From: a virus | Taxonomy: Duplodnaviria; Heunggongvirae; Uroviricota; Caudoviricetes | Strand: one strand, 5' to 3' | DNA: 11,476 nt | Virus record (IMG/VR): IMGVR_UViG_2713897055_000005 | Translations under genes and position numbers: made by a program | Notes under the pieces: model-generated | The model's input: the letters and a program-made list of their open reading frames with translations, nothing else | The model's database searches: none | What the model was told of the DNA's origin: nothing | Shown here: piece after piece, positions 2,474 through 11,476 of the stretch | Position numbering within the stretch: position 1 is the stretch's first letter | How the letters are laid out: each line of letters opens with the position of its first letter

Positions 2474-2605
2474 ATGTCAGACAAACTCATAATGCTGGCG
2501 AAGATCCTCTGTGTAATCGTCGGCATTTCATTTTCACTAATGCTGGTTGCTCTTTTTCTTTCCATGGGCTGGATGATGTTATCTTCGTCGGGGATGCTGG
2601 GGTGA
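2474..2605 (+). CDS. Small hydrophobic membrane peptide (43 aa), translationally coupled to Rz
   Basis: Strong ribosome-binding site GGGAGGA at 2461-2467, ATG 2474. Translation [43 protein letters not shown]. Its stop TGA 2603-2605 overlaps the Rz GTG start at 2602 (GTGA). Confidence 0.4.
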
Positions 2606-3075
2606 GCATAAACCGAATGCTTTCCGCGTTTACCGTTATTCTGCTGGTGGTCTGTGGTGCGCTTAGTCTGGGGCTGAATCATTACCGCGATAACGCCATC
2701 ATCTACAAAGCGCAGCGTGATAAAAAAGCCAGAGAGCTGGAGCTGGCAAACGCAACCATTACTGATATGCAGGTGCGCCAGCGCGATGTTGCTGCGCTCG
2801 ATGCAAAATACTCGAGGGAATTAGCCGATGCGAGAGCTGAAAATGAAACTCTGCATGCTGATATTGCCGCTGGTCGTAAGCGCCTGCGGATCAACGCCAC
2901 CTGCTCCGGTACCGTGCGTGACGCCACCGGCACCTCCGGCGTGGATAATGCAACCGGCCCCCGACTGGCAGACACCGCTGAACGGGATTATTTCATCCTC
3001 AGAGAACGGTTGATGACAATGCAGAAGCAGCTGGAAGGGGCACAGGACTATATCCGCACTCAGTGCCTGAACTAA
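2602..3075 (+). CDS. Rz: Rz-like i-spanin (inner-membrane spanin subunit)
   Basis: [52 protein letters not shown]...[28 protein letters not shown] closely parallels lambda Rz as I recall it. N-terminal transmembrane segment present. Start is GTG 2602, or alternatively ATG 2617. Confidence 0.9.
2828..3013 (+). CDS. Rz1: Rz1-like o-spanin lipoprotein, embedded in the +1 frame of Rz
   Basis: 61 aa. Signal peptide with lipobox LVVSAC; proline-rich mature part [24 protein letters not shown] matches lambda Rz1. Lies entirely inside Rz in a different frame. Confidence 0.85.
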
Positions 3076-3413
3076 GTTTTGCGGATGCGCCGTATCGTCG
3101 CTGTATTCCCTCATTAACAGAGACCGCAGCCCGACAGGGAGACTCCTCTGCGCGAGTGTGCGGGGATAATCAAAAACGATACACACCGGGGTTTACCGCG
3201 TTAACGGAGCGCGGCGTTGTCCCCTCATGGTCGCTGGTCCGGTGCGATGGTGGAAGAAACCGGACGATGTGTTACCTCGCATGACCTGTTATGTCATGTG
3301 TCTGATTTGTGATTTAAGTCGGATAATTGTCGTTGCCATTAAGCAGAGGATTGATGGCCGACAGGGTGGCATTGTTAGAATAAGACTTATTCTTATCTGT
3401 GCCGGGAATGAAA

Positions 3414-3740
3414 ATGAAAAGAAATCTTCCGTTAATTATTTTGTTGTCTTCTCTGGTTATGGGCTGTACGCAACATAAAACAGATATGCCCCGACAGTTG
3501 GTTAAGGCATTACCACAATATCCGGCCTATGCAGCGGCAAATTATATAAAGGGACGGGTTGATGTGAAGTTTGATATTGGTGCTGATGGTACTGTCACCC
3601 GAATTGAGTTTATCCGTTCAGAGCCGCACCATCTGTTTGATGAGCAGGTTGTAAAGGCGATGGCAAAATGGCGATTTGAGAAGGACAGGCCGCGTAAAGG
3701 CGTGAAGAAAACGTTTATCTTTAGTCCTTCTGCACCCTGA
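3414..3740 (+). CDS. Lipoprotein with a TonB C-terminal-domain-like fold; moron-like accessory gene
   Basis: GGGA ribosome-binding site then ATG 3414 (alternative ATG 3408). Signal peptide MKRNLPLIILLSSLVMGC with a lipobox Cys. Mature part PQYPAYAAANYIKGRVDVKFDIGADGTVTRIEFIRSEP...FDEQVVKAMAKWRFE resembles the TonB/TolA C-terminal domain signature. From memory only; no profile search run. Confidence 0.65.
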   Translation: MKRNLPLIILLSSLVMGCTQHKTDMPRQLVKALPQYPAYAAANYIKGRVDVKFDIGADGTVTRIEFIRSEPHHLFDEQVVKAMAKWRFEKDRPRKGVKKTFIFSPSAP

Positions 3741-3871
3741 TTATTTCATCAGAAATTAATTATCACTCTGTTGTTATTCTGTACATCCCGGCTGGGTAAG
3801 TCTTGTTCCGCCGGGTATGAAGATGAAATATTGTTGGAGGACAGTGGGTACCTGCTCCTGTAACCGAACGT

Positions 3872-4072
3872 TCATTTCTCGTTATTTGTCATGCTGGCCG
3901 GACGCAGATGCGTTGCATCTGTTGCCAGCCTTCTCCTGCAGGCTTCAATAACCCACGCTGAAAAGTTACCGGACCCTTTATGCTCAAGGGCGATGTTGAT
4001 CTGTTCAATCATGTGATTGGGGAAACGGATATTGCGGGTTGTGGTTCTGCGGGTCCGGTTTTTCGATGACAT
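3872..4072 (-). CDS. Ribbon-helix-helix DNA-binding protein (recalled as YlcI/YnfO-like, DUF3950)
   Basis: ATG at 4072 (minus strand) preceded by AAGGA. 66 aa: strand RNIRFP, helix NHMIEQINIALEH, turn KGSGNFS, helix AWVIEACRRRL is an Arc/CopG-type pattern. The track ORF starts further upstream at 4132 without a ribosome-binding site. Divergent from the HNH gene. Confidence 0.6.
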   Translation of the reverse strand: MSSKNRTRRTTTRNIRFPNHMIEQINIALEHKGSGNFSAWVIEACRRRLATDATHLRPASMTNNEK

Positions 4073-4113
4073 ATTTATTTCCTTTACTGATTGCCATATG
4101 ACGGGGATTTTAC

Positions 4114-4479
4114 ATGGCTGAGCTTCGTACACTCCAGAGCAGAATCAAAACACTGAATACCCGACGGGTGAATATTCTGAAGGGTGAACAGCGTCGTGTC
4201 AGTGGCAGTGCACGTGTTTCCCTCAAGCGTCATATCTGGCTCAGGGATGCCGGGCAGTGCTGTCTCTGTGGTCGTGTGGTTGACCTCTGTGACAGTGAAC
4301 TCGATCACCGAATTGCACTTCAGTTCGGTGGTGGTAATGAGGAGACGAATCTCTGGACGCTCTGTACCGAATGCCATCGACAAAAGTCTGCTCGTGAAGC
4401 GGCGGGTGGTATGCCGGACCCGACGCTGCCGGAGGTGTCCGGAGGTAGTGGCAGAGCGGACGACATCATCGGACTGTAA
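4114..4479 (+). CDS. HNH endonuclease, the type associated with terminase in cos phages
   Basis: 121 aa with CCLCGRVVD...DHRIALQFGGGNEETNLWTLCTECHRQK (Cys pairs plus His-Asn-His core). GGGGA ribosome-binding site before ATG 4114. Position immediately upstream of the cos region and terminase small subunit. Confidence 0.85.
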   Translation: MAELRTLQSRIKTLNTRRVNILKGEQRRVSGSARVSLKRHIWLRDAGQCCLCGRVVDLCDSELDHRIALQFGGGNEETNLWTLCTECHRQKSAREAAGGMPDPTLPEVSGGSGRADDIIGL

Positions 4480-9035: not shown

Positions 9036-9257
9036 ATGGCAAAGATCCGATATCTGCAGGGCACGCATGATGCCCGGGCCGGGGATATCCGTGATGTGGC
9101 ACAGCCGTGTGCGGAGGTGCTGGTTCGCCTGGGAAAGGCGGAGTACATCACGGTGCGACGTCCGGCAGGTCAGAAAAAGAAACGTGATGCGGAGCATGGC
9201 GAATGTGGAACCTTTTACGGCGAACCCGAAAAAACCAGAAATCAGGACGTGACGTAA
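9036..9257 (+). CDS. Hypothetical small protein (73 aa); doubtful
   Basis: ORF between capsid and portal genes with a weak ribosome-binding site; overlaps the predicted portal start by 55 nt in another frame. No motif recognised. Confidence 0.25.
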   Translation: MAKIRYLQGTHDARAGDIRDVAQPCAEVLVRLGKAEYITVRRPAGQKKKRDAEHGECGTFYGEPEKTRNQDVT

Positions 9258-10567
9258 GAGAGGCGGGCTGGACCAGCCTGTTTCAGGCGGTGGCTGAGCC
9301 CTTTTCCGGCGCCTGGCAGCAGGGCGTGAAAGCCGATCCTGAAGCCGTCCTCTCCTTTCATGCGGTGTTTGCATGTATTTCGCTGATATCCCAGGATATC
9401 GCCAAAATGCGGCTGCGTCTTATGCAGACGGATGCGCAGGGGATACGCAGGGAAACGCGCCGGGGGGATATTGCCCGCCTCTGTCGTCGTCCCAACGCCC
9501 AGCAGAACCGCATTCAGTTTTTTGAACTGTGGCTGAACGCCAAACTGCGTCACGGCAATACGGTGGTGCTGAAAATCCGTAATGCCCGGGGGCAGATCAA
9601 AGAACTGCGTATTCTGGACTGGAACCGGGTTGAACCTCTGGTGGCGGATGACGGCGAGGTGTTCTACCGCATCACGCCGGACCGGAACTGCGGGATCACT
9701 GAGGCGGTGACGGTGCCTGCCCGGGAAGTGATCCACGACCGGTTTAACTGTTTTTTTCATCCGCTTATAGGGTTGCCGCCGGTGTATGCCGCCGGGCTGG
9801 CGGCCACGCAGGGGCATCATATTCAGGAAAATTCGACGTCTTTTTTCAGAAATGGCGGCAGGCCGTCCGGGGTGATTGAGATCCCCGGCAGTATTACGGA
9901 AGAAAATGCGAAAAAACTGAAGAGCAACTGGGACAGCGGGTATACAGGCGAAAATGCGGGGAAAACGGCCATTCTGAGCAACGGGGCAAAATACAACCCC
10001 ACGACGTTTTCACCGGTGGATTCGCAGACGGTGGAACAACTGAAGATGACCGCTGAAATTGTCTGTTCGGTGTTCCGTGTCCCGGCCTACAAGATTGGCG
10101 TGGGACAACCGCCTTCCAGTGACAACGTGGAGGCGCTGGAGCAGCAGTATTATTCCCAGTGCCTGCAGACGCTGATTGAGTCCATTGAACTGTTACTGGA
10201 TGAGGCGCTGGAAACGGGGGAAAACGAGAGTACGGAATTTGATGTCACCACGCTGCTGAGAATGGACAGTGAGCGGCGCATGAAAACGCTGGGGGATGCG
10301 GTGAAAAATACGCTTCTCACGCCCAATGAGGCCCGTAAACGGGAGAACCTGCCGCCCCTGGCCGGCGGTGATGCACTGTATCTTCAGCAGCAGAACTACA
10401 GTCTGGAAGCGTTGTCCCGCCGTGATGCCCGTGAAGATCCGTTCGCGTCGTCCGGTAAAACAGCTTCCGTGCCTCAGGCGGTCGCTGCCTCTGACGGTAA
10501 TAAGGCAATCACTGAAACAGAGCATGATGCGGTGAAGGCGATGTTCAGGGGGATTCTGAAAAAATGA
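9203..10567 (+). CDS. Portal protein (HK97-family-like)
   Basis: 454 aa. The conserved N-proximal region FHAVFACISLISQDIAKMRLRLMQ and overall size are typical of portals. GGAG ribosome-binding site before ATG 9203. Confidence 0.85.
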   Translation: MWNLLRRTRKNQKSGRDVREAGWTSLFQAVAEPFSGAWQQGVKADPEAVLSFHAVFACISLISQDIAKMRLRLMQTDAQGIRRETRRGDIARLCRRPNAQQNRIQFFELWLNAKLRHGNTVVLKIRNARGQIKELRILDWNRVEPLVADDGEVFYRITPDRNCGITEAVTVPAREVIHDRFNCFFHPLIGLPPVYAAGLAATQGHHIQENSTSFFRNGGRPSGVIEIPGSITEENAKKLKSNWDSGYTGENAGKTAILSNGAKYNPTTFSPVDSQTVEQLKMTAEIVCSVFRVPAYKIGVGQPPSSDNVEALEQQYYSQCLQTLIESIELLLDEALETGENESTEFDVTTLLRMDSERRMKTLGDAVKNTLLTPNEARKRENLPPLAGGDALYLQQQNYSLEALSRRDAREDPFASSGKTASVPQAVAASDGNKAITETEHDAVKAMFRGILKK

Positions 10568-11273
10568 ATGAACGTGAACTGTCCATTATCCGTGCGCTGG
10601 GTGAAGAATTTTCCGCAGTGCTGGCGGATTTACAGCGCACATTTGAGGGGAAAATAGCCGCGCAGGCACAAACGTTTGAAGAAAAACTGGCTTCCCTGTC
10701 TGTGGTATTACAGAAGTGCGTGACGGGCGATGATGTGCGTCCGATGCTTGAGCAGATGGTGAAGGAGGCGGTAAGCCATATCCCTGTTCCGCGTGACGGT
10801 CGTGACTACGATCCGGAAGTACTGCAGAAGGCGGTGAATGACGCGGTCGCAAATATTCCACAGCCAGCGGACGGTAAAAGTCTCACCCCGGATGATGTGC
10901 GTCCGATGCTTGAACAGATGGTGAAGGAGGCGGTAAGCCATATCCCTGTTCCGCGAGATGGTCGTGACTATGATCCCGATGTTCTGCAGAAGGCGGTGAA
11001 TGATGCGGTCGCAAATATTCCTGTACCGGCGAACGGTAAAAGTATCACTCCCGATGATGTGCGTCCGATGCTTGAGCAGATGGTGAAGGAGGCGGTAAGC
11101 CATATTCCTGTTCCGCGCGACGGTCGTGACTATGATCCAGATGTTCTGCAGAAGGCGGTGAATGATGCGGTCGCAAATATTCCGCAGCCGGCAGACGGTA
11201 AAAGTATCACCCCGGATGATGTGCGTCCGATGCTTGAACAGATGGTGAAGGAGGCGGTAAGCCATATTCCTGT
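10564..11273 (+). CDS. Protein built from tandem 54-aa helical repeats; 3' end lost in the N patch; absent from the ORF track
   Basis: ATG 10564 overlaps the portal stop (ATGA). 55-aa unique N-terminus, then repeats of DDVRPMLEQMVKEAVSHIPVPRDGRDYDP(D/E)VLQKAVNDAVANIP(Q/V)PA(D/N)GKS(I/L)TP. Copies differ mostly at synonymous positions (CGT/CGA/CGC for Arg), which supports a coding role. Function unknown. Confidence 0.6.
10729..11273 (+). repeat. 162-bp tandem repeat, 3 full copies plus a partial fourth, truncated by Ns
   Basis: Units begin at 10729, 10891, 11053 and 11215 (period exactly 162 bp), with about 90 percent or higher identity between copies, in frame with the CDS above. Confidence 0.85.
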
Positions 11274-11293
11274 NNNNCNTGATGNNCGTNNCN
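11274..11293. other. Ambiguous-base patch marking a probable contig join or assembly artefact
   Basis: Ns at 11274-11277, 11279, 11285-11286, 11290-11291 and 11293. Within 11285-11293 the Ns fall exactly where the repeat unit and the dnaA sequence differ, while shared bases (CGT, C, A) are called. Confidence 0.8.
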
Positions 11294-11442
11294 AATCGAG
11301 GACAAAACGGTTTGGCGCGTACAGGGCCAGCGTGTTATCGCTCAGTTCCGCCTGCAATGGGCGTATCCACATACTGAATTCTGTGGCTGGTAACTCATCC
11401 TGCAATCGGGCAAGACACTGCTGCCAAAGCGAAAGTGACACG
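11294..11442 (-). CDS. dnaA: dnaA 5' fragment (first ~50 codons, GTG start), truncated at the N patch
   Basis: Minus-strand translation [48 protein letters not shown] matches the E. coli DnaA N-terminus as I recall it. The displayed bases carry one extra C near 11400 relative to the frame the ORF track implies, so coordinates here are +/-1. Confidence 0.85.
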
Positions 11443-11476
11443 GCGGACTCCACTCGAACAAAAGTCGATAATGACT

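Follow-up and report, generated by a model that had tools for sequence, protein, structure and literature searches.

What does a small lipoprotein built on the transporter-docking domain of TonB do in a lambdoid prophage, directly after the lysis genes? The question is raised by a stretch of 11,476 nucleotides (nt) of a virus of the Caudoviricetes (IMG/VR record IMGVR_UViG_2713897055_000005; the whole stretch is hereafter called the window), which derives from a lambdoid prophage of Escherichia coli. At positions 3414–3740 on the plus strand it carries the coding sequence of a 108-amino-acid (aa) protein (RefSeq WP_000828070.1, the type A allele), hereafter the TonB_C lipoprotein. The gene was found to be a phage moron under purifying selection, and the body of its product is, on profile matches and predicted fold, a genuine TonB C-terminal domain. 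The reading favored here, to which a probability of about 0.5 is given, is that the lipoprotein serves as a decoy on TonB boxes and blocks the TonB-dependent entry of phages and colicins. The identity of the domain is already in public annotation and hence is not new: the protein is labeled ‘TonB family protein’ in RefSeq and ‘TonB C-terminal domain protein’ in phage 21 (Center for Phage Technology), and an older label derived from EDL933 reads ‘partial tonB-like membrane protein encoded within prophage CP-933N’. The gene is not discussed in the phage 21 genome announcement, and two EDL933 papers mention CP-933N and not this gene.

The open reading frame (ORF) extends over 3399–3740 on the plus strand and offers three candidate starts, GTG at 3399 and ATG at 3408 and at 3414. 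The RefSeq start, ATG 3414, is preceded 6 nt upstream by a Shine-Dalgarno-like GGGA (3404–3407) and corresponds to the sole start in the allele of phage 21. An initial annotation, made from the letters of the window, had described a signal peptide with a lipobox cysteine followed by a TonB-like body, and the peptide it quoted was found in the translation of this ORF. The N-terminus reads MKRNLPLIILLSSLVMG followed by C, with the basic residues K2 and R3, a hydrophobic stretch from L5 to M16, the lipobox L14-V15-M16-G17-C18 and then T19-Q20. The signal peptide with its lipobox LVMG/C thus occupies 3414–3467 on the plus strand, the codon of Cys18 being 3465–3467. In the 13 family members aligned, Cys18 was invariant and the lipobox conserved, with the variants VMGC, AVGC, SVGC, LMGC, LLGC, ISAC, and LSAC across the family, so that this part of the description was borne out. 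According to the +2 rule of the Lol pathway, an Asp at position +2 affects the sorting of a lipoprotein, and sorting to the outer membrane is expected where it is absent. Because residue +2 of the TonB_C lipoprotein is Thr and not Asp, the protein is expected to be sorted to the outer membrane and to face the periplasm. The tether is only 7–8 residues long, with the seven residues TQHKTDM between Cys18 and the folded domain.

The domain itself comprises residues 26–104 (3489–3725, plus strand), which align to residues 153–231 of E. coli TonB with about 39–40% identity over 79 residues. The profile search against Pfam TonB_C (PF03544) that the initial annotation had proposed was significant, with 56 bits against a cut-off of 24.6 (E = 5.5e-15), and the model TIGR01352 (tonB_Cterm) was matched with 56.5 bits against a cut-off of 27.1. 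The best full-length NCBIfam models were those of enterobacterial TonB, covered only over their last ∼80 residues. Sequence matches in the PDB were to structures of the C-terminal domains of E. coli and Salmonella TonB (E = 3e-16 to 2e-15). The equivalents of TonB Y163 and P164 (the YP motif), F180, G186, F202, W213, and F230 are kept in both alleles of the gene described below.

Structure prediction, also suggested by the initial annotation, agreed with the profiles. AlphaFold run with only close homologues gave a predicted local distance difference test score (pLDDT) of 62, which rose to 87 with a more diverse alignment; in the latter AlphaFold2 model, the core scored above 96. The modeled elements, a helix at 38–42, strands at 47–55 and 61–70, a second helix at 76–83 and a strand at 94–103, follow the order in TonB's C-terminal domain (helix, β1, β2, helix 2, β3). 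The top Foldseek matches were all TonB C-terminal domains, with root-mean-square deviations (rmsd) of 1.0–1.4 Å and a probability of 1.00; the rmsd was 1.0 Å to TonB of the BtuB:TonB complex (2gsk_B; target-normalized template modeling score of 0.92) and 1.1 Å to TonB of the FhuA:TonB complex (2grx). Profiles, matches to the sequences of solved structures and the predicted fold thus all confirm the claim of a TonB_C-like domain. With the TonB of 1u07, 2gsk, and 2grx, the lipoprotein shares the domain family, the fold, the YP motif, the aromatic core and the β3 strand that pairs with the TonB box. The last strand, β3, is present, and the protein stops directly after it.

Judged by its sequence features, the lipoprotein is nevertheless not a TonB, because it is without the membrane anchor helix, is without the proline-rich spacer and scores far below the cut-offs of the TonB equivalog models. 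Where TonB has an N-terminal transmembrane anchor, the lipoprotein has a cleavable lipoprotein signal peptide; having no such anchor, it would not be able to couple to ExbB/ExbD, and having no proline-rich spacer, it would not be able to span the periplasm. It reached 73 bits at best, whereas the cut-offs of the NCBIfam TonB equivalogs (PRK10819 etc.) lie between 265 and 448. It further differs from TonB in ending just after β3 and in having several transporter-contact residues replaced.

The gene is a phage moron, since it lies in extra DNA of deviant base composition that separates neighboring genes of related phages. The insert (3271–3937, plus strand) comprises 667 bp in place of 60 bp in 434B/DLP12. 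It was delimited by comparison with phage 434B, whose lysis region is from DLP12 and which is without the TonB_C gene: homology to 434B ends at 3270 and restarts at 3938 inside ylcI, covering 3938–4072. The GC content of the insert is 43.3% (computed over 3271–3870), whereas the window as a whole has 54.3% and the element adjoining the insert has 58.9%. The initial annotation had placed the gene in the accessory ‘bor slot’ after Rz/Rz1, and this holds, with Rz at 2602–3075, Rz1 at 2828–3013, and a homologue beside bor/iss in phage 21 and UTI89. In all mobile-element copies, the gene is situated between the lysis genes and the HNH/terminase genes or cos. Similar to the TonB_C lipoprotein, Bor/Iss of lambda and its relatives are small outer-membrane lipoproteins encoded between the spanin genes and cos/terminase, and they are adjacent to it in phage 21, 434B-type regions and UTI89. 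Bor/Iss share neither sequence nor fold with it, bor lies on the opposite strand, and their link is to serum resistance and not to TonB.

Two alleles are widespread in E. coli. The type A allele of this window also occurs in Stx1a-converting phages, Lys8385Vzw and JLK-2012, and was present in 417 of 5426 complete E. coli genomes; the type B allele, 71% identical, is that of classic phage 21, ev017, Perceval, PhiR phages and UTI89 and was present in 1225 of these genomes. Carriers of either allele make up between 23% and 30% of the 5426. A scan of IMG/VR gave 80 near-identical type A loci, which are informative for breakpoint mapping only, and a survey of genome contigs with a single narrow pattern gave six loci. 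Relatives with 40–50% identity were found in a Klebsiella phage, a prophage-like region of a Salmonella plasmid, metagenomic phage contigs and Klebsiella IncF plasmids. An exhaustive HMMER search returned thousands of TonB_C proteins, among them a distinct set of single-domain lipoproteins of 107–133 aa with the signature YAxAN, SEPxHLFD, and KWRFE..KPxxGM. A 129-aa TonB_C lipoprotein, 35% identical, was observed on a plasmid-like contig (5348–5737) between StbA/ParM partition genes and a QatABCD-type defense locus (KAP NTPase, QatB, TatD; 7213–11737 of that contig).

Between the type A and type B alleles, synonymous divergence (dS) is saturated at 1.5, and the ratio of nonsynonymous to synonymous divergence (dN/dS) is 0.12 for the whole gene and 0.10 for the domain; the gene is real and under purifying selection. 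This bears on the idea that it is a decaying, functionless fragment of a captured tonB gene, for which the EDL933-derived wording ‘partial’ and the altered C-termini of some database variants could be adduced. Such an origin is extremely improbable, and the evidence of selection and conservation in effect refutes it: besides the low dN/dS at saturated synonymous divergence, the acquired signal peptide and lipobox persist even in relatives with as little as 34% identity, and proteins of constant size (108–133 aa) are widespread in elements of E. coli, Klebsiella, and Salmonella.

How might a TonB C-terminal domain without the rest of TonB act from the outer membrane? The initial annotation had offered as a hypothesis that such a mimic could bind the TonB box of receptors such as FhuA or BtuB and block phage or colicin entry, and this is also the leading reading here. 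Short-tethered beneath that membrane, the lipoprotein would rival TonB in binding the TonB boxes of TonB-dependent transporters and perhaps also those of incoming group B colicins. Docking would proceed by β-strand augmentation on the last strand, as it does for TonB, and would be unproductive because no energy transmission would be possible. TonB-dependent entry of T1/phi80-type phages, colicins B, D, Ia and M, microcins and albomycin would thereby be damped, the price being a slower uptake of siderophores and vitamin B12. Expression would come from a weak promoter of its own in the lysogen and, after induction, additionally from Q-antiterminated late transcription.

Three precedents, namely fragment inhibition, TonB-box pairing and the Llp/Cor lipoproteins, are the grounds on which a TonB C-terminal domain anchored under the outer membrane would be expected to act as a competitive, non-productive ligand. 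Periplasmic TonB fragments studied by Howard, Herrmann, Stratilo and Braun in 2001 (J Bacteriol 183:5885) reportedly inhibit FecA and FhuA transport in vivo. Those engineered fragments are alike in providing the periplasmic C-terminal part of TonB without the energy-coupling part; they were laboratory products, soluble and overexpressed, whereas the lipoprotein is natural, encoded by mobile elements, predicted to be lipid-anchored and diverged in its surface. The TonB box is known to pair with β3 in TonB's C-terminal domain through β augmentation (PMC11658791). From the periplasmic side, FhuA is inactivated by the lipoproteins Llp and Cor, and proteins of this kind are presumed to be common (PMC9586334). 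Llp of T5 and Cor of phi80, T1, N15, and HK022 resemble the TonB_C lipoprotein in being small phage outer-membrane lipoproteins encoded by accessory genes and in acting on a TonB-dependent transporter from the periplasm. They are specific for FhuA and bind its plug, whereas the target of the TonB_C lipoprotein would be the shared TonB box, or TonB, which would make it generic. There is no kinship with Cor/Llp in sequence or fold, as Pfam and NCBIfam gave TonB_C-type families only and the fold is that of TonB's C-terminal domain; moreover, the TonB_C lipoprotein was not found in phi80, N15, and HK022.

Several observations weigh against the decoy reading. Residues on the surface of TonB that are implicated in contact with the transporter are replaced (R158 by K/T, Q160 by L/Y, R166 by Y, and R171 by Y), and the tether is short. 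The family has a signature of its own, which could point to another partner. Some single-domain relatives are chromosomal, beside ahpC and a glutathione S-transferase (GST) gene or an acetyltransferase gene, with no phage link; because relatives occur in such ordinary chromosomal contexts, the architecture is not exclusively a defense device of mobile elements. A general blocker of TonB would cost the lysogen iron and vitamin B12, yet the gene is very common. The support for a promoter consists of consensus and conservation. No defense-system family of PADLOC-DB v2 was matched at E ≤ 0.01, and full-text literature searches found no functional study of the gene.

As regards the cost in iron, phage 21 (OL657228) was observed to carry a complete sitABCD at 21967–25416, downstream of the tail-fiber genes, which encodes an Fe/Mn ATP-binding cassette importer that is independent of TonB. 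The pairing of the TonB_C lipoprotein, bor and sitABCD in phage 21 suggests an iron theme, and under the decoy reading SitABCD would fit a compensation for the iron cost.

The replaced surface residues would be irrelevant if the lipoprotein trapped the host TonB itself in mixed dimers of C-terminal domains, or disturbed the contacts of TonB with ExbD, and so held TonB at the outer membrane instead of occupying TonB boxes; sensitivity to TonB-dependent phages and colicins would be lowered in this case too. TonB C-terminal fragments crystallize as strand-exchanged dimers, and it was one of these, 1u07, that the model matched best (Foldseek E = 5e-8). Mixed dimers are also said to be one explanation that Howard et al. 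offered for the inhibition by periplasmic TonB fragments. The last ∼8 residues of TonB contribute to strand exchange in longer fragments, and the lipoprotein family is without these residues, which the TonB fragments have. Trapping of TonB is regarded as unlikely.

The same replacements could instead confer specificity, making the lipoprotein a modulator of one TonB-dependent transporter to the benefit of phage or host, through a loop change as caused by Llp or through FecA-type signaling. Llp provides a model for this, as it jams FhuA from the periplasmic side and alters its extracellular loops (PMC9586334). Phage 21, however, has a lambda-J-like central fiber and no cor gene, and nothing ties the carrier phages to a TonB-dependent receptor. 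The C-terminus of gpJ in the prophage of the window matched only other uncharacterized fibers of Shiga toxin (Stx) phages, from which a receptor was not assignable. A specific modulator is considered very unlikely.

A further reading is a role in the envelope or in virulence, in which the TonB_C fold would serve another ligand, such as peptidoglycan or an outer-membrane or periplasmic protein, and TonB-dependent import would be unaffected. Variants of this idea are a conversion factor like Bor/Iss or a tuning of envelope stability or of the timing of lysis. The gene adjoins bor/iss in phage 21 and UTI89 and directly follows the lysis genes in all mobile-element copies, the family signature is unlike TonB on the surface of helix 1, and the chromosomal relatives beside ahpC/GST or acetyltransferase genes point the same way. 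In addition, PHROG 1267 matches the lipoprotein end to end (E = 2e-42) and carries the label ‘Rz-like spanin’; the second match in PHROGs was phrog_34172 (E = 7e-16) and the rest were only weak. A spanin function was rejected, as the window has Rz and a proline-rich Rz1, which leave the lysis cassette complete without the TonB_C gene and a spanin role unnecessary, and as the protein consists of a folded TonB_C domain. A positional mis-annotation probably underlies the PHROG label, and the label is likely to spread into phage annotations. What further opposes an envelope role is that the nearest relatives, in both sequence and structure, are the domains with which enterobacterial TonB docks on transporters, and that lipoproteins with a TolA C-terminal domain, borne by the same plasmids, point to import machineries. 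Overall, a different ligand is rated as rather unlikely. In terms of classification, the lipoprotein is a member of the TonB_C family, and is neither a TonB nor a relative of Cor/Llp nor a spanin.

The TolA counterparts deserve separate description, TonB and TolA being the two import routes for colicins and many phages. A gene annotated ‘tolA’ on the Klebsiella plasmid pPM48TC_140 (NZ_MN543582.1; 2583–3089 of the analyzed stretch) was observed to encode the lipobox LITA/C followed by a TolA C-terminal domain, with matches to Pfam TolA (E = 5e-24) and to E. coli TolA III (E = 1e-17). Likewise, the ‘TolA protein’ of the lambdoid phage mEp460_ev081 (4989–5417 of the analyzed stretch) has the lipobox IIIG/C and is encoded between Q and the lysis genes. 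Relatives of these lipoproteins were found on 739 plasmids, 669 of them of Klebsiella, and on at least eight plasmids of Klebsiella or Pantoea (Klebsiella IncFIB among them), the TolA-type gene lies 3–5 kb from a gene for a TonB_C lipoprotein. Like the TonB_C lipoprotein, these proteins join a lipobox to an energy transducer's C-terminal domain and are encoded on mobile elements; the differences are that the domain is another, though structurally related, one and that the carriers are mainly plasmids. Because both occur as fusions of a lipobox to a C-terminal domain, TonB and TolA domains appear to have been captured in one format. The TolA lipoproteins are a parallel and not an explanation, and may represent a second ‘transducer-domain decoy’. 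It is tentatively proposed, at somewhat less than even odds, that mobile elements of Enterobacteriaceae have repeatedly captured the docking domains of TonB and TolA as outer-membrane decoys and that the TonB_C lipoprotein is a broad-spectrum factor of exclusion or immunity. Every TonB-dependent invader (phages of the T1/phi80 type and many others, group B colicins, microcins and sideromycins) would then be blunted by mimicry of a host protein and not by the masking of one receptor.

The leader of the gene was examined for signals that could drive its expression. The initial annotation had noted a TTGATG at 3351–3356 and a TAGAAT at 3376–3381, both on the plus strand, together with a near-palindrome at 3379–3393, and had suggested a promoter or operator belonging to the gene. 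The positions of the two hexamers were as given. TAGAAT forms part of a candidate extended −10 element, TGTTAGAAT (TGn followed by TAGAAT; 3373–3381, plus strand), which is the only TGnTAnAAT in the window when both strands are scanned. It is kept as TGTCAGAAT in the 71%-identical type B allele, and the block ATTGTYAGAATAAGAC is kept in the leader of phage 21, which otherwise diverges as much as the gene. The −35-like TTGATG lies at a poor spacing of 19 nt from the −10 element; a standard sigma-70 promoter scan gave no site for the TonB_C gene and was silent on this pair because of that spacer length. A promoter is thus plausible from consensus and conservation, its activity being inferred. 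Late transcription antiterminated by Q is also expected to read through the gene, which shares its strand with the late genes. The strongest sigma-70 consensus within 2900–4300 was TTCACA-16-TATAAT (11/12; 3541–3568, minus strand), antisense within the TonB_C coding sequence, which may be a chance occurrence in AT-rich DNA or an antisense promoter.

The operator part of the proposal did not stand. The palindrome is present, but one position away from where it had been placed, and it is perfect and not approximate: the inner palindrome GAATAAGaCTTATTC occupies 3378–3392 and extends to the perfect 8-1-8 palindrome AGAATAAGaCTTATTCT at 3377–3393, which overlaps the −10 candidate. Its right arm is missing from the type B allele of phage 21. 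For perfect inverted repeats whose arms are 7 or longer, eight matches were counted in the window, at ∼6 distinct sites, against 2.8 ± 2 in shuffled sequences. A conserved operator was consequently rejected, the right arm being absent from type B and the repeat being only mildly above chance. Regulation by Fur and iron through the palindrome was rejected as well; the best Fur-box match, at 3379–3397, is 13/19, a score that three further places in the window also reach, so that the resemblance is no better than chance.

The insert has at its left edge a terminator-like hairpin (3278–3300) with the tail TCTGATTTGT, identified by consensus scan (3278–3310, plus strand); the scan gave one site where 1.5 were expected, which is weak evidence for it. 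Between the TonB_C gene and ylcI, which converge, lies a GC-rich hairpin (CCCGGC...GCCGGG, 3787–3815); a T-run is lacking, which makes a role as terminator doubtful, the terminator scan was silent on it, and the fold of 3741–3871 gave z = −1.8. The predicted RNA folds were not significant for the leader (z = −1.6) or the trailer (z = −1.8).

Upstream of the insert, the lysis region of the window comprises a class II holin (993–1208), a lysozyme (1587–2120), the i-spanin Rz on the plus strand, which is taken from the ORF list and annotated as ‘lysis protein’ by RefSeq at the homologous place in RM10466, and the o-spanin Rz1, embedded in Rz on the same strand, with the lipobox VSAC and a proline-rich body. 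Between Rz and the left junction of the cassette lies a conserved non-coding element of the lambdoid backbone (3086–3270, plus strand), which is outside the insert. It is 83% identical to 434B/DLP12 and, between the alleles, more conserved than the TonB_C gene. It is unannotated; 4145 of the 5426 E. coli genomes have it, with as many as 11 copies, and it was also found on plasmids and in 398 phage records. Its occurrence does not depend on the TonB_C gene, and its place is between lysis/bor genes and ylcI or cos. A mosaic breakpoint at 3085, directly after Rz, was observed in 54 of 84 related loci. The element contains a hairpin with the arms CCGCG (3196–3200) and CGCGG (3210–3214), which in 434B read CTGTG and CGCAG, so that the changes look compensatory. 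Rfam had no match in the window, this element included.

Downstream, the YlcI/YnfO (DUF3950) gene (3872–4072, minus strand; RefSeq annotation; Pfam DUF3950, E = 6e-20) contains the right junction of the insert and is followed by genes for an HNH endonuclease, the small and large terminase subunits, a capsid-protease fusion and the portal. The portal ORF (9203–10567) stops at 454 aa, compared with a portal of 861 aa in RM10466; a G-run at ∼10547 has five G where RM10466 has six, and the C-terminal part goes on in another frame past it. A sequencing error in the homopolymer or a genuine frameshift would account for this. Within the C-terminal extension of the portal (10729–11476 region), a 162-bp tandem repeat of 3.4 copies (91% matches) runs into scattered Ns (11274–11293) and then into the 5′ end, on the minus strand, of a gene that we take from its translation to be dnaA. 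The match to the portal region of the prophage covers only the first 80% of 10450–11476 (to about 11273). The end of the window thus looks like an assembly or scaffold junction and not like biology.

If the decoy reading is true, a generic shield would be present in about 23–30% of sequenced E. coli, with Shiga toxin-producing strains (STEC), extraintestinal pathogenic strains (ExPEC, e.g., UTI89) and phage 21 among the carriers of the gene, and would be directed against TonB-dependent phages, colicins, microcins and siderophore–antibiotic conjugates. It would bear on the host range of phages used in therapy, on competition through colicins and microcins in the gut and on susceptibility to sideromycins and ‘Trojan horse’ drugs of the cefiderocol type. 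It would also constitute a new principle of exclusion, the mimicry of a domain of a host energy transducer, with a TolA counterpart on plasmids. Should the decoy reading be wrong, the gene would still encode one of the commonest uncharacterized lysogenic-conversion lipoproteins of E. coli.

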